Positions 2,681 to 33,017 of a stretch of DNA of 44,354 nt are shown here, one piece after another; the first letter of the stretch is position 1, and each line of letters opens with the position of its first letter. Source of the stretch: Vectrevirus LF31P3; the sequence record OZ035776.1; one strand, written 5' to 3'. The position numbers and the translations under genes are program-made. The notes beneath the pieces are model-generated. The model was not told the origin of the DNA and ran no database searches. It saw only the letters and a program-made list of their open reading frames with translations.

Positions 2681-2971
2681 ATGGCTAAATATGGTACTAC
2701 AGGTTCTGTTACTGGTCAGGCTTTTCGAGTAAAAGCAGTACAAACTATTGCAACGGCAATCCCGATGCCTGTTGTTAAAGAAGCAGACCTTAAGAGTAAA
2801 GACCACCCTATCAACATCAAACATTTATCAGGTAAACAGAAAGGTGCAATGGTTGCTCTTGAGAAAGGTGACACAACCCTGCATATTGCTGTTGCACGTG
2901 GCAGTGAACCAACAGACCCTTGGGATGTAACTGGTATGGAAGGGGAAGCTGTTACTCCAGCAGAGGTATAA
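2681..2971 (+). CDS. hypothetical protein, paralog B (SGKQKGAMV motif)
   Basis: ATG preceded by gaaggagg; tandem paralog of 2384..2662. Confidence 0.6.
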   Translation: MAKYGTTGSVTGQAFRVKAVQTIATAIPMPVVKEADLKSKDHPINIKHLSGKQKGAMVALEKGDTTLHIAVARGSEPTDPWDVTGMEGEAVTPAEV

Positions 2972-2973
2972 TA

Positions 2974-3318
2974 ATGCTTAATAAATACTTCAAGCGTAAA
3001 GAGTTTGCTTGCCGTTGTGGCTGCGGTATATCCACTGTTGATGCTGAATTACTACAGGTAGTAACAGATGTGCGTGAGCACTTTGGTTCTCCTGTAGTTA
3101 TCACTTCGGGGCATCGCTGTGCTAAGCACAATGCTAATGTAGGAGGAGCTAAGAACTCCATGCATCTTACTGGTAAGGCTGCTGACATTAAGGTACGAGG
3201 CATCTTACCTTCTGATGTACATAAGTATCTTACTGATAAGTACCAAGGCAAATATGGGATTGGTAAGTATAACTCCTTTACTCATATTGATGTACGTGAC
3301 GGGTGTGCACGATGGTAG
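2974..3318 (+). CDS. endolysin, peptidase M15-like (zinc D-Ala-D-Ala carboxypeptidase-type fold)
   Basis: Motif SGHRCxxHNxxVGGAxNSxHLxGxAADI typical of M15/VanY-like cell-wall peptidases; ATG at 2974 (internal Met of the longer track ORF) directly after the upstream stop. Confidence 0.75.
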   Translation: MLNKYFKRKEFACRCGCGISTVDAELLQVVTDVREHFGSPVVITSGHRCAKHNANVGGAKNSMHLTGKAADIKVRGILPSDVHKYLTDKYQGKYGIGKYNSFTHIDVRDGCARW

Positions 3319-3426
3319 GTTGTGTTGCATGGTGTGAACGCATGGTTGCTAAGGCTTCAGAGGAAGGCAACTATGAAGATTGGCAGAACTACTCAACTTT
3401 ATTATCTCAATGGAAAGGGAGATGCA

Positions 3427-3576
3427 ATGAAAAAGCTGTTCAAATCTAAGAAGGTTGTAGGTGCACTAGTTGCATTGGCAATTGCTCTTGTTTCTGTAGG
3501 TCTTGGTGTAGACCTTGGCTCTGGCACGGAATCCTCTGTGACAGACGTGGTCTGCCAAGTGATCACCTGTGAATAA
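3427..3576 (+). CDS. small membrane protein (lysis-associated?)
   Basis: 49 aa, MKKLFKSKK followed by a hydrophobic helix; aaggga 6 nt upstream of ATG; sits between endolysin and spanin-like genes. Confidence 0.4.
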   Translation: MKKLFKSKKVVGALVALAIALVSVGLGVDLGSGTESSVTDVVCQVITCE

Positions 3577-3790
3577 GTTTCTAGAAGTGCTGGCAGGTCT
3601 TATTGGCCTGCTTGTCTCTGCTAAGAAGAAACAAGAAGAGAAGGAGGCACAAAGTGAAGCGAATCATGTTAGTGACAATCCTGCTGATTGGTTCGCTGAC
3701 CACTTCCGGGTGTCAGCAGGCGTTACCAGAGAAAGCAATGGTGAAACCTCTGAGGCCGACGCTGACGGCAGTTTACGAGGTAGACGATAA
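3569..3790 (+). CDS. putative i-spanin (Rz-like)
   Basis: N-terminal transmembrane segment then charged region; GTG start overlapping upstream stop (coupling); contains an overlapping +1-frame lipoprotein gene. Confidence 0.5.
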   Translation: MNKFLEVLAGLIGLLVSAKKKQEEKEAQSEANHVSDNPADWFADHFRVSAGVTRESNGETSEADADGSLRGRR

Positions 3791-3863
3791 AGTCTGCTTC
3801 AGTAAGCCTGATGCTACAAAATTAGGTTTGTATATTCTTTCGCTAGAACGCGGATATAATTAA
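3654..3863 (+). CDS. putative o-spanin (Rz1-like outer-membrane lipoprotein)
   Basis: Overlaps the Rz-like gene in another frame; signal peptide with lipobox LTTSGC; GTG start 6 nt after aaggagg (ATG alternative at 3666). Confidence 0.55.
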   Translation: MKRIMLVTILLIGSLTTSGCQQALPEKAMVKPLRPTLTAVYEVDDKVCFSKPDATKLGLYILSLERGYN

Positions 3864-3892
3864 TACATAGCTTTATATATCAGTGTCTTACG

Positions 3893-3915
3893 ATTTACTG
3901 GACACTATAGAAGAG
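3893..3915 (+). promoter_or_regulatory. phage RNAP promoter (atttactggacactatagaagag), +1 G at 3910
   Basis: Full match to the most common promoter variant; upstream of the tailspike genes. Confidence 0.8.
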
Positions 3916-5972: not shown

Positions 5973-8156
5973 ATGCTTCAAAGATTAGGGGCAATGTTTG
6001 TTCGGTACAAAAATAAAGTAGGTAATGCTATCGAGCGTACACTACAAAGTAAATTACAGGATGTAGTAAGTGTAAAGGATTATGGCGCTATTGGTGATGG
6101 AGTATATCGTTCACTTGGTGCTAAATTTACCACGTTAAGTATGGCACAAGTAGTATACCCGCATGCGGAAAGTTTAACTCAATCGCAAGATTGGGCGGCT
6201 ATTCAGGCTGCACTTAATTCTCACTCAAAAGTGTACATTCCAGCAGGTAAGTACATGCTATCTGATACCATTGAGATGCGCGGCGGTCAAACTCTGCAAG
6301 GTGACGGTATTGATTCTTGGGTTGCAGGTTATGCTGGGTTTGTAAAAGATAATCAAGGCACTCACCTCATAATGGTGGGAGAGGGAAATAAGAAGTATAC
6401 ATTAGATCATGTATCTAACTTCGATGTAGAAGGTGGTGTCATAGACAACCCAGCTAAGGGTGACGCTTATACTGCCACTGCACCTTCCCCTAATTACTCA
6501 TTTACTGACTTCACTAATGCTAACGCCTCTGGTGCACAACGTGCTACATTGAAACATTTCAGTGTAGCATTACGTTGCACAGGTCACGGTGGTGTTTATC
6601 TTCGTGACTTCCGTATTGTGCCTAATCACAGAGGGCAAGAAGGTTATAAGGATGAGTTGTCAACTGCATTAGGGGACGCATGGGATGTAGGTATTTGGCT
6701 GGAGAATACATCTGACTCAGTGTTATCTTCTGTGCAAGCAGTAGGTTACTGGCGCATTGCAGGTGTTATGAAGACTTGTATACCACAAGAGGGTTCCTTT
6801 GTTGGTGGAGATCGTGATAGGGTATACAATTGCACATTACAAGGTTATCGTGGCTTCTTAGCACGTTCGCATGATACTTACCAAGTAGAAGAAGTATCAG
6901 GTAACACTGTATCGATTAAGTGGTCTGCATCTCACACTTTCGAACCTTCTGGTAAAGTTCGTATCCAAGGGAAAGACCGTAGTTATACTAGCCTGTCTGT
7001 ATCTGGTGACAAATTAGTTTTCAATGGTATTGACGATGTATCAGGTATTAATACCAATAGCTATGTGAGAGTTTCAGGGTCTTCATTCGGAATGTCTGCT
7101 ACTCAACTAAATAACACATACATCGCTGCATTAAACCATCATGCTCGCTTGCCAGCAACCTCTAACCTTTTAGATAATGGGTTTGTTACTTCGGCAGCTT
7201 GCTATGAAGTTGCAGGTGAACCAATTCGTGCCATAAAATTATCTAACTGTACTGTCATTACTTGGGATGACATCTTAGGTATGACTGGTGGTATTCGGGA
7301 CTTCCAGACGACAGATACTTACTTCGAGTCTCAGCCTTTCCGTACTTCTGTGCAAGGCTTGGCAAGCACCACACAACCTGCTGGTTCTCGCATGATTGCA
7401 CTTCGTGGACGTCAAGGTTCTAAAACTACAGGCTATCAAGCTATCGGTTGTACTTATGGGCCAGGTGTAGACCTAAGCCCTCGTTATGAAAGCGATGTAT
7501 CTCGTTACACAACTTCCGGTGGTATGTTCAATCCAAGAGAAGATTTGAACACAACTAAGCAGTTACCAATGAGGCAAGACGCTACTGAGCTATCTTCTAC
7601 TTCTGACTTATTCCTTACACATGCTGCAGGTGGGAAGGCCTATGTTGGCGCTACCTCTGGTGATGCAACGCTTCAATCTAGAACTGGATCATTGAATATC
7701 CAATCAGGACTTCGTGTACGCATTGGTGGCACTGATGGTAGTGGTTGGTACATTGCTGACAGTGCTAAGTTGACACCTACTGCTGACAATGCAAGGGCTT
7801 GTGGACAGCCTAATGGACGATGGACTGTTGTCTATGCTGTTAATGGTACAATCCAGACTTCTGATGGTAGATTCAAGGAAATCCTTGAGATTGAACAGGC
7901 AGAACTTGATGCTGGTCTTGAATTATCAGCAAACCTAATTAAGTATCGGTGGAATGGGGAAGATAAAATTCACTTTGGTTGCATAGCACAAGAAGTGATG
8001 TTAATACTGGAGAAACATGGCCTAGACCCATTACAATATGATATGGTTCAGTATGATGAGGAGGCAGACATCTTTGGGGTAAACTATGCTGAACTCAACA
8101 GCTTCTGTATTGCAGCATTATCGAGGAAGTTAAATGCCATTAATCAGATCAGTTAA
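5973..8156 (+). CDS. tailspike protein 2 with C-terminal intramolecular-chaperone (peptidase S74-like) domain
   Basis: N-terminal VKDYGAIGDG motif (pectate-lyase/beta-helix tailspike signature); C-terminal SDGRFKE ... GCIAQEV resembles the autoproteolytic chaperone domain of endosialidase-type spikes; aaggagg before ATG. Confidence 0.75.
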   Translation: MLQRLGAMFVRYKNKVGNAIERTLQSKLQDVVSVKDYGAIGDGVYRSLGAKFTTLSMAQVVYPHAESLTQSQDWAAIQAALNSHSKVYIPAGKYMLSDTIEMRGGQTLQGDGIDSWVAGYAGFVKDNQGTHLIMVGEGNKKYTLDHVSNFDVEGGVIDNPAKGDAYTATAPSPNYSFTDFTNANASGAQRATLKHFSVALRCTGHGGVYLRDFRIVPNHRGQEGYKDELSTALGDAWDVGIWLENTSDSVLSSVQAVGYWRIAGVMKTCIPQEGSFVGGDRDRVYNCTLQGYRGFLARSHDTYQVEEVSGNTVSIKWSASHTFEPSGKVRIQGKDRSYTSLSVSGDKLVFNGIDDVSGINTNSYVRVSGSSFGMSATQLNNTYIAALNHHARLPATSNLLDNGFVTSAACYEVAGEPIRAIKLSNCTVITWDDILGMTGGIRDFQTTDTYFESQPFRTSVQGLASTTQPAGSRMIALRGRQGSKTTGYQAIGCTYGPGVDLSPRYESDVSRYTTSGGMFNPREDLNTTKQLPMRQDATELSSTSDLFLTHAAGGKAYVGATSGDATLQSRTGSLNIQSGLRVRIGGTDGSGWYIADSAKLTPTADNARACGQPNGRWTVVYAVNGTIQTSDGRFKEILEIEQAELDAGLELSANLIKYRWNGEDKIHFGCIAQEVMLILEKHGLDPLQYDMVQYDEEADIFGVNYAELNSFCIAALSRKLNAINQIS

Positions 8157-18779: not shown

Positions 18780-21312
18780 TTGGAAGAAGGAAGCGGAAGG
18801 GCGGATCCTAGTTATGGACGCCGAATCAAAAGGCTTGCTTGATGCCATACGCTATGGTCATCGTGAAGATGTGCACATCATTTGCTGCATGGATTTACTC
18901 ACCACTGAGGAGTTCCTATTCTTCGACCCATATGAGATGCGTGACCCTGAGGCAAGGGAACGCCTGAAGGAGTGGGAAGGCCATCAAGACGGAACCTTGG
19001 TTGATGGTGTTAACTTCCTGAAGCATTGTGAAGCTATTGTGTCACAGAACTTCCTAGGGTATGACGGTCTTCTCTTTGAGAAAGCATTCCCTGATATTTG
19101 GAAAGGCTTTAACTATACCGAGAAGCGCGGCAAGGGCAGACTCCGTGCTGATCTGTGTCCGGTGCGAGTCATGGATACGCTGGTGATGAGTCGCCTGTTA
19201 AACCCCGATAGACGCCTTCCTCCGCAAGCATATGCCAAAGGTATGGGTAACGTCGCCCCTCACTCAATTGAGGCGCACGGCATCCGTATAGGCCGCTATA
19301 AACCAGAGAACGAGGACTGGTCTAAACTAACTGATCACATGGTTCACCGTGTACGTGAGGATGTGGCGATTGGTCGTGACCTGTTCCTCTGGCTCTTTAA
19401 CGGGGAATGGATGGAGCACAAACGCCGTGGCGTGAACAAACGTACTGGCCTAGGGATTGAGACAGCCTTCCATATGGAGTCCATTGTGGCGCTGGAGATG
19501 AGCCGTCAGGCCGAGCGCGGGTTCCGTCTGGATATTGACAAAGCACTAGCGCGATGCGAAGAATTGGACGCTAAGATTGACGAGACAGTCGCAGCGTTCC
19601 GCCCTCACATGCCTATGCGTATCAAGTCTAAACCTTTTAAACCGGAAGAAAAGAATGAAGTATGCCAACGCGCAAATGAGTATGGAGCTAGCAACAATAT
19701 ACCTACTGTCCTTGACCCCTCACACTTTCTTCATGCCGAGAGACGAGGAGATCGCAAGACAGTATGGAGTGTCACTACTAAGTCTGGTGATTGGTCGGCT
19801 AGTGTCAAGAAAGACTTTCCTCACCTTAGAGGAAACCGTAATGACACGCCAAGTATCAAGTGGATTGGTGCTTACTCGCCTGTTACTTTCGAAGAGATTC
19901 CCTTGGGTAACAGGGATACAGTTAAGCAAGTGCTCTATGATTATGGATGGAAAGGTGTTGAATTTAACGATACCGAGCAAGCGCATCTCGATGAGTATGG
20001 CGTATTACCAAAACCTTGGAGTGGAAAGATAAATGAAAAGTCTCTTACTTTATGGCAAGAGAGAGCCGCACGTGAAGGTAAAACAGTACCCGATTGGTGC
20101 TTGGGTATCGCTGCATGGTACATACTCGTATCCCGTCGTGGTCAGATACTCAACCGTGGTGACGTTGAAGCCTTCAACGAGAAGGGAACGTGGCCCTCGC
20201 AGGCTGGTGTACGAAAGTGTCGCGGCCTTGTACCTGTAGCATTCAACAAGGAGCTAGGAATCAATGCGCAGCAATACTACGAAAGGTACGGATGCTGGCC
20301 TACGTCAGACAAGGATGACGGGGAGTGGCGTGTTCCAGCTGTTGCTATTAGCATTGGCACTTCTACGTTCCGTATGCGTCATCGTAACGTGGTTAATATT
20401 CCTGCCCGTGGCTTGTATCCTTTACGTGATCTATTCATAGCAGGTAAAGGCAAGCTAATCCTTGGTTGTGACGGTGCAGGTCTTGAACTGCGCGTCCTGT
20501 CTCACTTCATGAATGACCCTGAGTACCAAGAGATTGTATTGCATGGTGACATCCATACACATAACCAGATGAAGGCTGGTCTTCCTAAGCGTGACATGGC
20601 GAAGACGTTTATATACGCTTTCCTCTATGGCTCTGGTATAGCTAACCTTGCAGCAGTCTGCGGTGTTACTGAGGAAGAAATGAAGGAAGTTGTGGCAAGA
20701 TTCGAGATTGAACTACCGTCTCTTGCACGTCTTCGTGAGAATGTTATCGCACAAGGTAACAAGTTTGGCTACCTGCAAGCACCTGATGGGCATTGGGGTC
20801 GCATCCGCATGTCTGGTGGTGAACTTAAAGAGCACACGATGCTTAACGTATTACTCCAGATGACTGGCTCTTTGTGTATGAAATATGCATTAGTCAAGGC
20901 ATTTGCAGTAATGCGCAAGGAAGGTGTAGCCTTGGATGCTATGGGAAATCCTTGTGGTGTGGCTAACGTGCATGATGAAATCCAGATGGAAGTTCCTGAA
21001 GAGGAGGTCTTGTATCTTAACTACGACCTACCTTTCACCTTAGATGGGTTCGAAACAGAGAAGGCTGCTGTGAAAGCAGTGTTCGATGCAGAGGAGAAAC
21101 GTGTTCATGTGGATTCTGAAGGACGTATGTGGTCTGCTGCAAACCTCGTTAGCGTTGATGCTGATGCTGGTGTATTGCATTGCCAGCGCCGTTATCACCG
21201 TGCAGGTCATATCATTGCCGACGCCATGACTTGGGCAGGGCAGTATCTGAAGATGCGTTGCCCGATGGCAGGCGAATATAAGATTGGCGCAAGTTGGAAG
21301 GAAACACACTGA
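18766..21312 (+). CDS. DNA polymerase, family A (T7 gp5-like)
   Basis: Motifs DGAGLELRV (A), KTFIYAFLYGSG (B), VHDEIQ (C); ATG at 18766 chosen over the upstream track start. Confidence 0.95.
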   Translation: MKIIDWKKEAEGRILVMDAESKGLLDAIRYGHREDVHIICCMDLLTTEEFLFFDPYEMRDPEARERLKEWEGHQDGTLVDGVNFLKHCEAIVSQNFLGYDGLLFEKAFPDIWKGFNYTEKRGKGRLRADLCPVRVMDTLVMSRLLNPDRRLPPQAYAKGMGNVAPHSIEAHGIRIGRYKPENEDWSKLTDHMVHRVREDVAIGRDLFLWLFNGEWMEHKRRGVNKRTGLGIETAFHMESIVALEMSRQAERGFRLDIDKALARCEELDAKIDETVAAFRPHMPMRIKSKPFKPEEKNEVCQRANEYGASNNIPTVLDPSHFLHAERRGDRKTVWSVTTKSGDWSASVKKDFPHLRGNRNDTPSIKWIGAYSPVTFEEIPLGNRDTVKQVLYDYGWKGVEFNDTEQAHLDEYGVLPKPWSGKINEKSLTLWQERAAREGKTVPDWCLGIAAWYILVSRRGQILNRGDVEAFNEKGTWPSQAGVRKCRGLVPVAFNKELGINAQQYYERYGCWPTSDKDDGEWRVPAVAISIGTSTFRMRHRNVVNIPARGLYPLRDLFIAGKGKLILGCDGAGLELRVLSHFMNDPEYQEIVLHGDIHTHNQMKAGLPKRDMAKTFIYAFLYGSGIANLAAVCGVTEEEMKEVVARFEIELPSLARLRENVIAQGNKFGYLQAPDGHWGRIRMSGGELKEHTMLNVLLQMTGSLCMKYALVKAFAVMRKEGVALDAMGNPCGVANVHDEIQMEVPEEEVLYLNYDLPFTLDGFETEKAAVKAVFDAEEKRVHVDSEGRMWSAANLVSVDADAGVLHCQRRYHRAGHIIADAMTWAGQYLKMRCPMAGEYKIGASWKETH

Positions 21313-25495: not shown

Positions 25496-26495
25496 GCTTC
25501 GCAGCTTGTACAAAGACTCCGAGGTACTTGATGCAATCGAGCAAGCTACCGACGAGAAAGGTAATGTTAATTACAATGAGATGGCACGTGTATTATCGTG
25601 TCACCCTGTGGGTAAGAAGATTACCCGCCAGTTGGCTCGATACTGGCATGGTCAATTCAAGAAGACCAAGAAGAATGGTGATTATTACCAGACCCTTCTG
25701 CAAGAAGATAAGCGTATCAAAGAAGAGCGTAAGCTCAGGACTCCTGACCGCTACGAGGATTTGGCTATTGTACCATTGCCTGACTCGCCTCATCGAAGTG
25801 TACTGGTAATCCCTGATACTCATGCACCTTATGAGCATCCAGATACCTTAGAGTTCCTTGCAGCAGTCGCGGCACGTTACCGTCCAGATACAGTGGTTCA
25901 CTTAGGAGATGAGGCAGATAAACACGCCCTCTCCTTCCATGACTCTGACCCGAATCTGGATAGTGCTGGCATGGAGCTAGAGAAGGCTCGTGTCTTCATG
26001 CACAAGTTGCACAAGATGTTCCCTGTGATGCGCCTGTGTCATTCTAATCACGGCTCTATGCACTTCCGTAAGGCAAGCGCCAAGGGTATTCCAGTGCAAT
26101 ATCTTCGCACCTACCGTGAAGTCTTCTTCCCAAATGGAGGTGGCGACCAGTGGGATTGGCAACATACGCACGTCCTTGAGTTGCCGAATGGTGAACAAGT
26201 GGCATTCAAGCATCAACCTGCTGGCTCTGTCCTAGCAGATGCAGCGCATGAGCGTATGAACCTTGTGTGTGGTCACTTGCACGGTAAGATGTCTGTGGAG
26301 TACGCACGTAATACACATGAACAGTATTGGGCTGTGCAAGGTGGCTGCTTAATTGATGAGTCATCCCGTGCATTTGCCTATGGTCGTGAGTCTAAATACA
26401 AGCCAGCATTAGGTTGTGTGGTCATTCTGGAGGGTGTGCCTCACATCGTCCCGATGCAAACCAATAGCGACAACCGTTGGATTGGCAAGATTTAG
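25488..26495 (+). CDS. calcineurin-like metallophosphoesterase
   Basis: Motifs IPDTHAPY (DxH), LGDEAD (GDxxD), CHSNHG (NH); TTG start 6 nt after aaggagg preferred over in-frame ATG at 25464 which lacks an SD. Confidence 0.7.
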   Translation: MGKLRSLYKDSEVLDAIEQATDEKGNVNYNEMARVLSCHPVGKKITRQLARYWHGQFKKTKKNGDYYQTLLQEDKRIKEERKLRTPDRYEDLAIVPLPDSPHRSVLVIPDTHAPYEHPDTLEFLAAVAARYRPDTVVHLGDEADKHALSFHDSDPNLDSAGMELEKARVFMHKLHKMFPVMRLCHSNHGSMHFRKASAKGIPVQYLRTYREVFFPNGGGDQWDWQHTHVLELPNGEQVAFKHQPAGSVLADAAHERMNLVCGHLHGKMSVEYARNTHEQYWAVQGGCLIDESSRAFAYGRESKYKPALGCVVILEGVPHIVPMQTNSDNRWIGKI

Positions 26496-26512
26496 TTGAC
26501 ACTATAGAACAA
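26490..26512 (+). promoter_or_regulatory. phage RNAP promoter (atttagttgacactatagaacaa), +1 G at 26507
   Basis: Closest of all to the canonical SP6 promoter as recalled (atttagGtgacactatag). Confidence 0.7.
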
Positions 26513-27100: not shown

Positions 27101-27274
27101 ATGGAAGGTAAACTGTATAGAGGGTACTTCGGTAACTTATATAAAGTAAGCTCTCGCGGTTTTGTATTGACCTCTGATGATGAAGGTGCAATGTGGCACC
27201 TAAGTGCATATGGTTCTAACTTAGCATACTTTAAAGAGGCAATAGTCAAAGGTGTGATGAAGGAGGTGAAATGA
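27101..27274 (+). CDS. hypothetical small protein (57 aa)
   Basis: gagga before ATG; overlaps upstream stop. Confidence 0.4.
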   Translation: MEGKLYRGYFGNLYKVSSRGFVLTSDDEGAMWHLSAYGSNLAYFKEAIVKGVMKEVK

Positions 27275-28218
27275 ATATCTTCCAATTCCTAGGCCTTCCA
27301 GAAGACCACCGCAACCACCCATTCATGCTGGTGAAGCATCGCGGTGAAGTACCTGAGAAGAAACTAACATTTCCATGTTATGCACAGGTGAAACGAGATG
27401 GTATCTTTTCTGCTGTTGTTATTCGCACTGATGGTGTCGTTGGCATTTTTGGTCGCACTGGTAAGAAACTGGCAAACACTGAAGGCCTCGAACAAACATT
27501 TGCTACCTTTCCGGTTGGCATTTATCTTGGTGAGCTTCAGTCTATGGCCATTGATATCTACCTTGAGGCAATCTCTGGGGTTGTGAACCCTAATCGCACT
27601 GAGCCACTTGATTTCATAGGCCAGCAGATTAAAGACAACCTGTATATCGACTTCTTCGATATGTTAACTATTAAGGCATTCCATGATGGATTCACTGATG
27701 TTTCTTATCTCAAACGTTACGATGCTTTACATCGCCGCATCGGCGCTCATCTTAGCGGGTACAACGCTATCCTTCCTATTACTCCTTGCCATAATGAGCG
27801 AGAAGTTGAAGCGTTTGCGCAAGAGCAGATAGACGCAGGCCGAGAAGGTGCTGTGTTTAAACTGGACTGTGATTATGAAGCAGGACATAAAGGTTATCGT
27901 CAGACTAAAGAAGTCCGTAAGGTAACTTATGACCTTACTTGTATTGGCTTTGAAGAAGGTAAAGGTAAGTACAAAGGTAAGGTAGCTAACCTCATTTTCA
28001 AATGGAAAGGAGGCAAGACAATCAAAGCTATGTTAGGTAAAGGGTGGACTCATGCAGATGCAGAACAGATGTTCCACGATATTAAACATGGTGGGCGATT
28101 GAATGTCATTGGTAAAATCTTTGAAGTCAAAGGTCTTCAGGATTCAAGCAAGGGCAACATTCGTCTGCCCAAAGCGGGAGAATTAAGACATGACAAAGAT
28201 GAACCAGATTTCTTTTGA
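27271..28218 (+). CDS. ATP-dependent ligase (nucleotidyltransferase superfamily; DNA ligase-like)
   Basis: Motif I KRDGIF (adenylation lysine), motif IV EGAVFK, lysine-rich motif V region; gaaggagg before ATG. Confidence 0.75.
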   Translation: MNIFQFLGLPEDHRNHPFMLVKHRGEVPEKKLTFPCYAQVKRDGIFSAVVIRTDGVVGIFGRTGKKLANTEGLEQTFATFPVGIYLGELQSMAIDIYLEAISGVVNPNRTEPLDFIGQQIKDNLYIDFFDMLTIKAFHDGFTDVSYLKRYDALHRRIGAHLSGYNAILPITPCHNEREVEAFAQEQIDAGREGAVFKLDCDYEAGHKGYRQTKEVRKVTYDLTCIGFEEGKGKYKGKVANLIFKWKGGKTIKAMLGKGWTHADAEQMFHDIKHGGRLNVIGKIFEVKGLQDSSKGNIRLPKAGELRHDKDEPDFF

Positions 28219-28402
28219 TAGCATGAAGGCAACTCGTGCAGTTGAGGTAGCAGAAGCTATCTTTGAAACTTTATCCTGTGGCATGGAAGTGCCATATACT
28301 TTACTTGCTGATGCAGAAGAACTTGGTCTTTCTGTAGAAGCTATCCAAGAGAAGGTTGACGAATTATATGGTACAGACGAAGAAACCGACGATTTCATTT
28401 GA
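28190..28402 (+). CDS. hypothetical acidic protein (70 aa)
   Basis: ggaga before ATG; overlaps ligase 3' end. Confidence 0.4.
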   Translation: MTKMNQISFDSMKATRAVEVAEAIFETLSCGMEVPYTLLADAEELGLSVEAIQEKVDELYGTDEETDDFI

Positions 28403-28406
28403 AGGA

Positions 28407-28535
28407 ATGGAGATGCTTGAGATAATTCTCAAGCCTTCTTCTCCGAAGGTGACTAAGACTCATGAAGAGTTAATCGTCGATGAAGTGAAGCGTTACATCA
28501 TGGATTGTGTCAGAGCACAACTGGTGGTCCAATGA
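28407..28535 (+). CDS. hypothetical small ORF (42 aa)
   Basis: gaagga before ATG; ATGA overlap with next gene. Confidence 0.3.
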   Translation: MEMLEIILKPSSPKVTKTHEELIVDEVKRYIMDCVRAQLVVQ

Positions 28536-28993
28536 TACGTCCAGCTTCCTTCCTAGATATTCCTGAGATTATAAACCTTGGGAATAAATATGTGGAAGAG
28601 GAAGTCAAGGTAGTGGCCCATCACTCAGCCTCATGGAATGCAGAACAAAGCGCACATAACCTTTGCGCATCTCTTAGTAGAGAAGATTTATTCCTATGGG
28701 TTGCTGTAGATGAAGGGCGGATTGTAGGGTTCCTGTGGGCTGGCTATCACGAGTTGGCCCCTTGGACACCTGTAAGGGTTGCCTCTGACATTCTCTTTTA
28801 TATTATACCAGAGAAGCGAGGAACCCTACTTGGTATGCGTCTCATCAAAGCCCTAAAGCAATGGGCTAGTGATAATGAATGCTCTGAGGTTCGCCTGTCT
28901 ATCGCCTCTGGTATTAATGAAGAACGTGTCGGACGTATGTATAAGCGACTTGGCTTTGAACCGTTTGGCACTGTGTACAACCTGAAGTTCTAA
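28532..28993 (+). CDS. putative GNAT-family N-acetyltransferase
   Basis: Motif-A-like EKRGTLLGMRLIKAL and C-terminal YKRLGFEP; start is the internal ATG at 28532. Confidence 0.5.
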   Translation: MIRPASFLDIPEIINLGNKYVEEEVKVVAHHSASWNAEQSAHNLCASLSREDLFLWVAVDEGRIVGFLWAGYHELAPWTPVRVASDILFYIIPEKRGTLLGMRLIKALKQWASDNECSEVRLSIASGINEERVGRMYKRLGFEPFGTVYNLKF

Positions 28994-29002
28994 GGAGATA
29001 AC

Positions 29003-29212
29003 ATGGGTGTTGTAAAGAAAGCATTTAAGGCTATCGGTCTTGCTCAAGATGCACCACGTATTGAAGCCAAAGTCCCAGCACAGCAGCTTGAGCGTAAGCC
29101 TGAGACTGAAGCTGAAGATATTCAAATTGGTGCAGGCGGTGATGATGCGACTGCATCTGCAAAAGGTAAGCGCGGCCTTGTCCGTCCGGTAGCTTCTAGC
29201 TTGAAGGTGTAA
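29003..29212 (+). CDS. small virion-associated protein candidate (T7 gp6.7-like position)
   Basis: taaggagata before ATG; directly upstream of portal. Confidence 0.45.
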   Translation: MGVVKKAFKAIGLAQDAPRIEAKVPAQQLERKPETEAEDIQIGAGGDDATASAKGKRGLVRPVASSLKV

Positions 29213-29213
29213 T

Positions 29214-30764
29214 ATGAAACAGAGCACAGATTTGGAGTATGGAGGTAAGCGGTCTAAGATACCTAAGCTATGGGAGAAGTTCTCCACTAAACGTAGCTCT
29301 TTCCTTGATAGGGCGAAGCATTACTCCAAATTAACCTTGCCCTATCTGATGAATGACAAAGGTGATAACGAGACTTCGCAGAATGGATGGCAAGGTGTAG
29401 GTGCTCAGGCAACTAATCATCTAGCCAACAAGCTAGCGCAAGTACTATTCCCTGCACAGCGTTCCTTCTTCCGTGTAGACTTAACTGCACAAGGTGAGAA
29501 GGTTCTTAATCAGCGTGGCCTGAAGAAGACAGAGCTAGCTACCATCTTCGCTCAAGTGGAAACACGGGCAATGAAAGAGTTAGAGCAACGTCAATTCCGG
29601 CCTGCTGTAGTGGAAGCATTCAAGCATCTTATTGTTGCTGGTAGCTGTATGCTATACAAGCCGAGCAAAGGTGCAATCAGTGCTATCCCAATGCATCACT
29701 ATGTAGTTAACCGTGATACCAATGGCGACCTGTTAGACATTATCTTACTGCAAGAGAAAGCCTTACGCACCTTTGACCCAGCTACACGTGCTGTAGTAGA
29801 GGTTGGCTTGAAAGGTAAGAAGTGCAAGGAAGATGACAGCGTTAAGCTGTACACACATGCTAAGTATCTTGGTGATGGATTTTGGGAACTCAAGCAATCT
29901 GCTGATGATATCCCTGTGGGTAAGGTGAGTAAAATCAAATCAGAAAAGCTACCTTTCATCCCATTAACTTGGAAGCGAAGCTATGGTGAGGATTGGGGTC
30001 GCCCTCTTGCAGAGGATTACTCCGGTGATTTATTCGTTATCCAATTCTTATCTGAAGCGGTTGCCCGTGGTGCTGCGCTGATGGCAGATATTAAGTACCT
30101 GATTCGTCCGGGTGCTCAAACTGATGTTGACCACTTTGTTAACTCTGGCACTGGTGAAGTTGTCACTGGTGTAGAAGAAGATATCCATATTGTACAGTTA
30201 GGTAAGTATGCAGACCTCACACCTATTAGCGCGGTTCTAGAGGTATACACTCGCCGTATCGGTGTTGTCTTCATGATGGAGACAATGACACGCCGTGACG
30301 CCGAACGTGTTACTGCTGTAGAAATCCAGCGAGATGCGTTAGAGATTGAGCAGAACATGGGTGGTGTATACTCCCTCTTTGCTACTACTATGCAATCGCC
30401 AGTAGCGATGTGGGGTCTGCTGGAGGCAGGGGAGTCCTTCACTAGTGACTTAGTGGACCCTGTGATTATCACAGGTATTGAAGCTTTAGGACGCATGGCT
30501 GAGTTGGATAAACTGGCTAACTTTGCTCAGTATATGTCACTGCCATTACAATGGCCTGAGCCTGTCCTAGCTGCTGTGAAATGGCCTGACTATATGGATT
30601 GGGTGCGTGGTCAAATCTCTGCTGAACTGCCGTTCCTTAAATCAGCTGAAGAGATGGCACAAGAACAGGAAGCACAGATGCAAGCACAGCAAGCACAGAT
30701 GCTTGAAGAAGGTGTGGCTAAGGCCGTGCCGGGTGTAATTCAACAAGAACTTAAGGAGGCGTAA
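29214..30764 (+). CDS. portal (head-to-tail connector) protein
   Basis: 516 aa; blocks WQGVGAQATNHLANKLAQVLFP and GGVYS resemble T7 gp8 as recalled; gaaggtg before ATG. Confidence 0.9.
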   Translation: MKQSTDLEYGGKRSKIPKLWEKFSTKRSSFLDRAKHYSKLTLPYLMNDKGDNETSQNGWQGVGAQATNHLANKLAQVLFPAQRSFFRVDLTAQGEKVLNQRGLKKTELATIFAQVETRAMKELEQRQFRPAVVEAFKHLIVAGSCMLYKPSKGAISAIPMHHYVVNRDTNGDLLDIILLQEKALRTFDPATRAVVEVGLKGKKCKEDDSVKLYTHAKYLGDGFWELKQSADDIPVGKVSKIKSEKLPFIPLTWKRSYGEDWGRPLAEDYSGDLFVIQFLSEAVARGAALMADIKYLIRPGAQTDVDHFVNSGTGEVVTGVEEDIHIVQLGKYADLTPISAVLEVYTRRIGVVFMMETMTRRDAERVTAVEIQRDALEIEQNMGGVYSLFATTMQSPVAMWGLLEAGESFTSDLVDPVIITGIEALGRMAELDKLANFAQYMSLPLQWPEPVLAAVKWPDYMDWVRGQISAELPFLKSAEEMAQEQEAQMQAQQAQMLEEGVAKAVPGVIQQELKEA

Positions 30765-31690: not shown

Positions 31691-31713
31691 ATTTACTGGA
31701 CACTATAGAAGGG
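31691..31713 (+). promoter_or_regulatory. phage RNAP promoter (atttactggacactatagaaggg), +1 G at 31708
   Basis: Full motif, followed by gggaga; upstream of capsid gene. Confidence 0.85.
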
Positions 31714-31763: not shown

Positions 31764-32972
31764 ATGTCTACACCGAATACTCTGACTAACGTTGCTGTAT
31801 CTGCATCCGGTGAGGTTGACAGCCTTCTCATTGAGAAGTTTAATGGTAAGGTCAATGAGCAGTACCTGAAAGGTGAGAACATTCTGTCCTACTTTGATGT
31901 ACAAACTGTTACTGGCACTAACACAGTGAGCAACAAATATTTGGGCGAAACTGAGTTGCAGGTGCTAGCACCGGGTCAGTCTCCTAATGCCACCCCTACT
32001 CAGGCGGATAAAAACCAATTGGTAATTGATACCACTGTCATTGCTCGTAACACTGTGGCTCACATCCACGATGTACAAGGTGACATCGATAGCCTGAAAC
32101 CAAAACTGGCTATGAACCAAGCCAAGCAACTGAAACGTCTGGAAGACCAGATGGCAATTCAGCAGATGCTGTTAGGCGGTATTGCTAACACCAAGGCCGA
32201 ACGTAACAAGCCGCGTGTTAAAGGGCATGGCTTCTCTATCAACGTTAACGTAACTGAGAGTGAAGCACTGGCTAACCCTCAGTATGTTATGGCTGCGGTA
32301 GAGTATGCTCTGGAGCAACAGCTTGAGCAGGAAGTGGACATCTCTGATGTAGCTATCATGATGCCGTGGAAGTTCTTCAATGCTCTGCGTGATGCAGACC
32401 GAATTGTAGATAAGACTTACACTATCAGCCAGTCTGGTGCAACCATTAATGGCTTCGTTCTCTCTTCTTATAACTGCCCTGTGATCCCGTCTAACCGATT
32501 CCCTACCTTCGCTCAGAATCAGGCTCACCACCTGTTGTCTAATGAAGATAACGGCTATCGTTATGACCCTATCGCAGAGATGAATGGTGCAGTTGCTGTT
32601 CTGTTCACTGCCGACGCACTGCTGGTGGGTCGTACCATTGAAGTGACTGGTGACATCTTCTATGAGAAGAAAGAGAAGACTTATTACATTGACACCTTCA
32701 TGGCTGAGGGTGCAATCCCTGACCGTTGGGAAGCAGTGTCTGTAGTTACCACTAAACGTAATGCAACTACTGGTGCTGCTGAAGATTCTGGTGATGATCA
32801 CGCAACCGTACTGGCTCGTGCACAGCGTAAGGCTGTATATGTCAAAACAGAAGGTGCTGCGGCTGCATTCTCTGCTGCCCCAGCAGGTATCCAAGCGGAA
32901 GACCTTGTAGCGGCGGTACGTGCTGTAATGGCAAATGACATCAAGCCGACTGCAATGAAACCTGCTGAGTAA
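31764..32972 (+). CDS. major capsid protein
   Basis: 402 aa, after scaffold, own strong promoter and downstream terminator. Confidence 0.85.
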   Translation: MSTPNTLTNVAVSASGEVDSLLIEKFNGKVNEQYLKGENILSYFDVQTVTGTNTVSNKYLGETELQVLAPGQSPNATPTQADKNQLVIDTTVIARNTVAHIHDVQGDIDSLKPKLAMNQAKQLKRLEDQMAIQQMLLGGIANTKAERNKPRVKGHGFSINVNVTESEALANPQYVMAAVEYALEQQLEQEVDISDVAIMMPWKFFNALRDADRIVDKTYTISQSGATINGFVLSSYNCPVIPSNRFPTFAQNQAHHLLSNEDNGYRYDPIAEMNGAVAVLFTADALLVGRTIEVTGDIFYEKKEKTYYIDTFMAEGAIPDRWEAVSVVTTKRNATTGAAEDSGDDHATVLARAQRKAVYVKTEGAAAAFSAAPAGIQAEDLVAAVRAVMANDIKPTAMKPAE

Positions 32973-32981
32973 TACCTATGC

Positions 32982-33017
32982 CCTATCTACCTTGCGTAGG
33001 TAGGGTTATTTTTGTTA
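32982..33017 (+). terminator. terminator after capsid gene (T7 Tphi-like position): 9-bp stem, 7-nt loop, U-run
   Basis: ccctatcta-ccttgcg-taggtaggg then ttatttttgtt. Confidence 0.7.

Follow-up and report, generated by a model that had tools for sequence, protein, structure and literature searches.

A GNAT-family N-acetyltransferase gene at the replication/structural boundary of the Vectrevirus LF31P3 genome

The acetyltransferase gene and its product

The sequence of Vectrevirus LF31P3 (record OZ035776.1), analysed here as a single stretch of 44,354 nucleotides that is referred to below as the window, contains at 28532..28993 on the plus strand a gene of 153 codons plus stop for a GNAT N-acetyltransferase, the counterpart of gp27 in phages K1E and K1-5 and of gp28 in SP6. 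Judged by its sequence, the window is that of a K1E/K1-5-like podovirus of the SP6 group (Autographiviridae, Molineuxvirinae), and not of T7. The 1 kb around the gene is 97–99% identical to many Vectrevirus genomes, including those of ULINTec7, vB-Eco-KMB14 (hereafter KMB14), AAPEc6, K1E and K1-5. The encoded protein is 100% identical to WPK27895.1 of KMB14 and to the ULINTec7 protein, which carry the annotations 'GNAT family N-acetyltransferase' or 'putative acetyltransferase'. Its identity is 96% with K1E gp27 and 76% with SP6 gp28, each of which bears the label 'acetyltransferase', and 95–100% with its equivalents across other Vectrevirus. The gene call is therefore already known, identical proteins having been deposited and annotated as GNAT acetyltransferases. 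K1E gp27, the K1-5 'acetyltransferase' (YP_654128) and SP6 gp28, which fall in PHROG 1249, represent the same gene with the same neighbours. The K1-5 reference copy (3346-3873) is longer, at 175 amino acids (aa) as opposed to 153, owing to a 66-nt imperfect tandem duplication that is absent from the window. This duplication, part of which is read in a shifted frame, adds 22 residues (HHSASWNAEQSAITFVHLLIET) in the α1-α2 region, the equivalent position in the window being approximately 28625-28645.

The open reading frame (ORF) is closed by a TAA stop at 28993 and in its longest form, as given by the ORF listing, comprises 162 aa from a TTG at 28505. Initiation at the ATG at 28532 would give a protein of 153 aa, 17.4 kDa and isoelectric point (pI) 6.1, which begins with MIRPASFLDIPEII and ends with YNLKF. 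All 22 of the 22 aligned homologues begin with MIRPA or a near variant of it, and the annotation of KMB14 places the start at the same ATG. This codon is preceded by GGTGG, a Shine-Dalgarno-like element, and shares bases with the TGA of the preceding 42-aa ORF, gp26 (caATGAta); since an overlap of this type is the usual mark of coupling, the arrangement suggests that translation of the acetyltransferase gene is coupled to that of gp26. Comparison with SP6 gp28 gave a ratio of non-synonymous to synonymous substitution (dN/dS) of 0.13, with dS close to saturation, and the gene is under purifying selection. The common start of the homologues, the ATGA overlap and the dN/dS value together rule out a chance ORF or a wrongly set start, and the matches to Pfam Acetyltransf_1 and PHROG 1249, together with the 248 phage records described below, likewise show that the ORF is not there by chance.

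Assignment of the protein to the GNAT family draws on several profiles. Pfam Acetyltransf_1 matches with an E value of 1.2e-9 and a score of 38.9 bits (cut-off 20.7) over positions 14-116 of the 116 in the profile, while Acetyltransf_7 (36.3 bits, cut-off 27) and Acetyltransf_10 (25.6 bits, cut-off 23.6) also pass their thresholds, and PHROG 1249, 'acetyltransferase', matches residues 1-151 at E 1.1e-53. An AlphaFold2 model of the protein (pLDDT 88.3) has the element order β1-α1-α2-β2-β3-β4-α3-β5-α4-β6-β7, within which the α/β fold of GNAT enzymes (β1-α1-α2-β2-β3-β4-α3-β5-α4-β6) is present. A preliminary description of this DNA, made from its letters alone, had noted a protein of about 150 aa with two GNAT-like motifs and had proposed structure prediction and profile searches as a means of checking it. 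The ORF proves to be real, both motifs are present, and the three Pfam profiles, PHROG 1249 and the predicted fold all bear out the family assignment. There is thus very little doubt that the protein, gp27 of a K1E/K1-5-like Vectrevirus, is a single-domain GNAT acyl-CoA N-acyltransferase.

The first of the two motifs, EKRGTLLGMRLIKAL (aa 94-108; 28811..28855, plus strand), spans the β4-α3 region and holds the predicted acetyl-CoA pyrophosphate-binding loop, R96-G97-T98-L99-L100-G101. Conservation was counted in a family alignment of 72 sequences with identities down to approximately 26%, in which R96 is invariant (72/72), G97 is retained in 64 (89%) and position 101 is glycine or alanine in 66 (92%). 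The central glycine of the canonical loop gives way in the family to variable residues; as the pyrophosphate loop of GNAT enzymes binds its ligand via backbone amides, this change may be compatible with binding. The second motif, YKRLGFEP (aa 137-144; 28940..28963, plus strand), lies in helix α4 and places Tyr137 at the usual position of the general-acid tyrosine, which is found in many, but not all, GNATs. In a hidden Markov model (HMM) alignment the tyrosine of MYKRLGF lines up with that of LYEKMGF in the DpA polyamine acetyltransferase (8a9o), and the related entry 8a9n has phenylalanine at this position. Within the family alignment, residue 137 is tyrosine in 50 of the 72 sequences (69%).

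Relatives of the protein are numerous. Searches with tblastn located it in 248 phage records, the hosts of which include Escherichia, Salmonella, Klebsiella, Proteus, Erwinia, Pectobacterium, Vibrio, Aeromonas, Pseudomonas syringae and Marinomonas, with Roseobacter SIO1 as a more distant relative, and a profile search that covered all of 1.84 billion cluster representatives returned 1,226 at E ≤1e-10, nearly all of them of approximately 150 aa. The contexts of four relatives were sampled: one metagenomic contig has the order GNAT, 53-aa ORF, portal; two are short contigs in which a portal gene is not recognisable, and which are uninformative; and the fourth belongs to a bacterium and has a tandem GNAT within an operon for type I secretion. 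This tandem protein (P0064, 371 aa; 6001-7116 of a JGI metagenome contig) is related to the phage family by profile at E 2e-26, and its operon encodes a cadherin-repeat protein of more than 2,213 aa, an ABC exporter with C39 peptidase, a membrane fusion protein and an HlyC-type acyltransferase, as in a type I secretion/RTX-like locus. The locus suggests a protein-acylating role for this cellular relative, which is too distant for its function to be transferred to the phage protein. Of six longer, distant relatives that were scanned, five (277-385 aa) have either a further GNAT-type stretch or additional sequence that is unassigned, and they show no informative partner domain above the Pfam cut-off. 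P0188 (203 aa) has a single GNAT domain with an N-terminal extension.

Gene neighbourhood and transcription

The ligase, gp25, gp26, gp28 and portal genes of the window, and its SP6-type promoters, all lie on the plus strand. The last recognisable DNA-metabolism gene upstream encodes an ATP-dependent DNA ligase (27271..28218), with matches to Pfam DNA_ligase_A_M and DNA_ligase_OB_2 and a ligase annotation in near-identical phages. It is followed by two small ORFs, gp25 (28190..28402, 70 aa; PHROG 5860, E 2e-40), which is annotated in K1-5 and KMB14, and gp26 (28407..28535, 42 aa, with the KMB14 start at 28413; PHROG 6507, E 1e-26). Downstream, the portal or head-to-tail connector gene (29214..30764; Pfam Head-tail_con, E 8e-88) encodes a protein 32% identical to gp30, the portal of phage LUZ19. 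Between the acetyltransferase and portal genes lies gp28 of the window (29003..29212, 69 aa), which its match to PHROG 1320 at E 1.9e-11 places in one family with T7 gp7.3 (virion assembly; 'host range and adsorption'), the same PHROG being matched by T7 gp7.3 itself at E 1e-29. This ORF is annotated as hypothetical in most near-identical genomes, and it gave no match to Pfam VirionAssem_T7 at E ≤0.1. The position of the acetyltransferase gene had been described initially as immediately upstream of the structural module, which is accurate provided that this intervening small gene is reckoned among the structural or assembly genes, as the first of them.

A scan of the window for SP6-type phage RNA polymerase promoters with up to three mismatches returned eight, against zero expected by chance, at 3893, 11062, 17407, 18098, 21747, 23355, 26490 and 31691, four of which share the exact sequence ATTTACTGGACACTATAGAAG. 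The nearest upstream of the acetyltransferase gene is that at 26490..26510 (ATTTAGTTGACACTATAGAAC), which differs from the SP6 consensus at two positions; the one that follows downstream, at 31691, precedes an ORF (31764-32972) in the position of the major capsid gene, after which comes a strong terminator-like hairpin (32980-33006). Since the promoters at 26490 and 31691 flank it, the gene falls within a transcription unit of the phage polymerase; the series 'nucleotide kinase', ligase, gp25, gp26, acetyltransferase, gp28, portal and scaffold is best explained as a unit transcribed from the promoter at 26490. The name 'nucleotide kinase' comes from the K1-5 annotation, and the same gene in the window is assigned to Pfam DUF3310. 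A scan for terminators also revealed a hairpin with an 8-bp stem (GCTTGAGATAATTCTCAAGC) at 28415-28434, inside the gp26 ORF and approximately 100 nt upstream of the acetyltransferase start, with a pyrimidine-rich tail and a weak T-run.

The order ligase, small ORFs, GNAT, gp7.3-like gene, portal and scaffold is kept in K1-5, KMB14 and SP6, and the same order from ligase to scaffold is found in the Colwellvirinae phages Vibrio phi-A318 and Pseudomonas uligo. The window opens with the large terminase gene (326-2227) and is circularly permuted with respect to the K1-5 reference record. In Pseudomonas phage phi-2, an HNH homing endonuclease gene (2874-3371) lies between the GNAT gene and the small virion gene, and T7 gene 7.7, for an HNH endonuclease (19848-20240), lies between gene 7.3 and the portal gene. 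With HNH genes present there in two unrelated lineages, the replication/structural junction appears to be a recurrent site of insertion.

Counterparts in LUZ19 and T7

In LUZ19 (Krylovirinae) the corresponding genes are ordered gp27 (83 aa), gp28, gp29 (a small virion protein) and gp30 (the portal), gp28 being Rac. The series gp28-gp29-gp30 thus parallels the genes that begin in the window at 28532, 29003 and 29214, with the portal proteins related as noted above, and Rac shares with the window protein a single-domain GNAT architecture of approximately 155 aa and the same slot, directly ahead of a small gene for a virion or assembly protein and of the portal gene. The two loci differ in that the rac gene follows that of the phage RNA polymerase, whereas the acetyltransferase gene of the window follows the ligase gene, and the proteins belong to different PHROGs (3986 for Rac, 1249 for the window protein). 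Rac, a predicted GNAT, leads when expressed alone to cleavage of the alpha subunit of Pseudomonas aeruginosa RNA polymerase at Gln244-Glu245 (Ceyssens et al. 2020, PMC7552054), which detaches the alpha C-terminal domain and lowers host transcription (PMC7552054). Changing residues of its predicted acetyl-CoA pocket to alanine returned the phenotype to wild type; Rac had no protease activity in vitro, and cellular protein acetylation rose upon its expression (PMC7552054).

The window protein has no match to PHROG 3986, the Rac family, at E ≤0.01, and Rac matches PHROG 1249 at E 4.9e-4. Profile-profile comparison of the SP6-type family with the Rac family gave a probability of 94.8–94.9% and E 4–5e-8 over 115–124 columns, in register over both the cofactor loop and the YxRL sequence. 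Because Rac also matches the generic Acetyltransf_1 profile (23 bits), this similarity proves GNAT ancestry and nothing further, and the argument for common descent rests specifically on the conserved slot. Direct orthology by BLASTP was rejected, as no alignment was obtained, and the link consists of profile-level similarity and synteny. The window protein may be a functional analogue of Rac, and possibly a distant orthologue of it, without being a member of the Rac family.

In T7 the order is gene 7, 7.3, 7.7 and 8, and it is gene 7 (133 aa, 'host range', PHROG 2746) that stands in the slot occupied by the GNAT of the gh-1-like Studiervirinae, the Krylovirinae and the SP6 group. In the gh-1-like Studiervirinae phage Henninger, the GNAT gp06 is followed by a gp7.3-like gene and then the portal; gp06 belongs to the Rac family (PHROG 3986, E 6e-47) and in addition matches PHROG 2746, the T7 gp7 family, at E 1.4e-5. 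Comparison of an 11-sequence alignment of the Rac/gh-1 type with a 12-sequence gp7 alignment gave a probability of 48% and, across 78 columns, E 1.8e-4. For a gp7 homologue of 98% identity, the AlphaFold2 model (pLDDT 90.6) has the order β1-α1-α2-β2-β3-β4-α3-β5-β6. T7 gp7 differs in lacking the invariant arginine of the cofactor loop (INPEADSKGL as against IIPEKRGTLLG) and in lacking helix α4 and its tyrosine.

No Pfam GNAT match was obtained for T7 gp7. Direct homology between the SP6-type and gp7 families was not significant: their profiles, when compared, gave a probability of 3% and E 0.015, and the gp7 profile searched against the window ORFs gave E 2.5. The relation is therefore only indirect, by way of the Rac/gh-1-type family together with the shared slot and fold. 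On this evidence T7 gene 7 probably derives from a GNAT that has degenerated while keeping the ancestral slot. Support for this is moderate, since the evidence from fold and position is strong and the sequence link, which runs through one intermediate family, is marginal to significant. The T7 protein itself is probably not an active acetyltransferase. The literature search, whose coverage was incomplete, yielded no paper that describes gene 7 as a GNAT derivative.

These observations bear on the statement in the preliminary description that the gene is not part of the core T7 gene set. In its favour, T7 has no GNAT that is detectable by sequence: a search (hmmsearch) of all six-frame T7 ORFs with the SP6-type profile gave nothing better than E 0.1, a result that also speaks against a T7 GNAT overlooked by annotation. 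Against it, the window is not T7, and the gene is conserved and has long been annotated in K1E, K1-5 and SP6. The implied novelty is not supported. T7 gene 7, with its predicted GNAT fold in the same position and its sequence link to the Rac-type GNATs, indicates that the slot is not foreign to the T7 plan.

Candidate functions and their implications

The function put forward here is a tentative one. In this proposal gp27 would bind acetyl-CoA via the R96-G97...G101 loop and acetylate an amino group on a single protein of the infected cell, or on a small set of them, Tyr137 serving as the general acid; the activity or stability of the target would thereby be altered at the switch from DNA metabolism to particle assembly, as part of host takeover, in the manner of the GNAT Rac in the same slot of phiKMV-like phages. 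Catalytic activity, a protein substrate and a host target are features that we infer, and the complete mechanism, from active acetyl-CoA enzyme through cell-protein target and middle-to-late timing to takeover, is a real possibility that falls somewhat short of being probable. What argues for the host-takeover or anti-defence element is solely the analogy with the positional homologue Rac (PMC7552054).

A number of points weigh against this proposal. The literature search returned no paper on the function of K1E gp27, K1-5 gp27 or SP6 gp28. The loop reads R-G-x-x-x-G/A where the canonical form is Q/R-x-x-G-x-G/A, the central glycine being replaced by variable residues, and phenylalanine takes the place of Tyr137 in 13 of the 72 aligned sequences (18%). 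BLASTP detects no similarity between the window protein and Rac (E 18), and the profile match to Rac may, taken alone, reflect only shared GNAT ancestry. The Rac effect itself is limited to the genus Phikmvvirus, since alpha stays intact with LKA1, which has a GNAT in the same place (PMC7552054), and growth of Pseudomonas putida is unaffected by Rac (PMC11794488). Lastly, the insertion in the K1-5 copy may be a strain-specific change, a hint that laboratory culture does not require the gene, or else a sequencing artefact.

The protein falls into no functional GNAT subfamily. Against the NCBIfam equivalogs for resistance and housekeeping GNATs (AAC(6'), ArsN1, RimI, MshD), the best scores were 27.9 bits (cut-off 124), 27.5 (cut-off 170), 24.2 (cut-off 140) and 22.6 (cut-off 86.4), all far too low, and an assignment by this route was rejected; similarly, the protein belongs to none of the functional families of solved small cellular GNATs (Hpa2, Ard1/Naa, DpA, SSAT, AAC(6'), PAT/BAR/ArsN). 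As the structural neighbours span protein, polyamine and antibiotic acetyltransferases, the fold does not single out a substrate. A link to O-acetylation of the K1 capsule was dropped, since phages whose hosts are not K1 strains conserve the gene just as well.

Among the alternatives, a small-molecule N-acetyltransferase that acts on a polyamine, an antibiotic-like amine, an amino acid analogue or an amino sugar, and so tunes a metabolite pool or detoxifies, appears somewhat unlikely. It would accommodate the best sequence matches among solved structures, which are to the DpA polyamine acetyltransferase (E 2e-5) and SSAT2, as well as the weak NCBIfam matches to ArsN1, AAC(6') and MshD, the fact that the highest-ranking fold matches include structures of phosphinothricin/BAR, AAC and SSAT enzymes, and the mildly acidic character of the protein (pI 6.1), which suits cationic substrates. 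The neighbourhood invites a different explanation, namely that the enzyme acetylates a structural or assembly protein of the phage (the gp7.3-like protein, portal, scaffold or internal core) and so affects particle infectivity or host range. Indeed, the gene shares its transcription unit with the gp7.3-like, portal and scaffold genes, which follow it directly, its adjacency to structural genes is kept across subfamilies, and T7 gene 7, with a predicted GNAT fold in the same slot, has traditionally been labelled 'host range'. However, adjacency in such phages mostly mirrors the timing of expression, Rac works without other phage proteins (PMC7552054), and T7 gp7 is devoid of the cofactor-loop arginine and α4, such that acetylation need not underlie its phenotype. 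No data on acetylation of virions came to light, and a virion target is considered unlikely.

Counter-defence by acetylation of a defence protein, as AcrVA5 does to Cas12a, or alternatively action on aminoacyl-tRNA or nucleic acid, has a precedent in a phage-borne GNAT (cited in PMC7552054) and would suit a gene that is accessory in the sense of being absent from T7 by sequence. Yet the gene is fixed in position across phages of many genera, unlike typical anti-defence cargo with its fast turnover, and neither a tRNA-acetylating toxin nor AcrVA5 appears among the top 50–60 structural neighbours, all of which makes this role distinctly improbable. The departure from the canonical loop and the phenylalanine of some relatives would also be consistent with a catalytically inactive GNAT fold that acts solely by binding a partner, as would the apparently degenerate GNAT fold in the T7 slot. 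That interpretation has very little to commend it, given that R96 is invariant, G97 and G/A101 are conserved at approximately 90%, Tyr137 is present in the window protein, helix α4 is kept, and the full-length Acetyltransf_1 match is above threshold.

The gene call itself adds nothing to what has been deposited, and the interest of the gene lies in the question of its substrate, in the precedent of Rac and in a slot that is shared across the family. Members of the protein family keep the same place in the genomes of hundreds of phages that infect many different Gammaproteobacteria, among which are therapeutic phages of K1 strains and of Klebsiella, and Rac, the sole occupant of the slot to have been characterised, reduces host transcription by a route that depends on acetylation. 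Escherichia coli phages that carry the gene would offer a tractable system in which to ask whether takeover by acetylation is general. The comparisons made here suggest that, throughout the T7-like family, the boundary between the replication and structural modules is marked by one gene of GNAT derivation. For T7 gene 7, an old and poorly understood gene, the signs of a degenerate GNAT fold provide a structural handle. A bolder scheme, which we regard as speculative and rather unlikely to hold in full, is that a single ancestral acetyltransferase gene at this boundary of the Autographiviridae gave rise to the SP6-type and Rac/gh-1-type GNATs and to T7 gene 7. In this scheme the SP6/K1-5 version would have kept its activity on proteins and would shut off some host function (perhaps transcription, as with Rac) at the late switch, and T7 gene 7 would be a catalytically dead remnant with a binding role. 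If this were true, a widespread and unstudied acetylation-based step in host takeover would become testable in E. coli.
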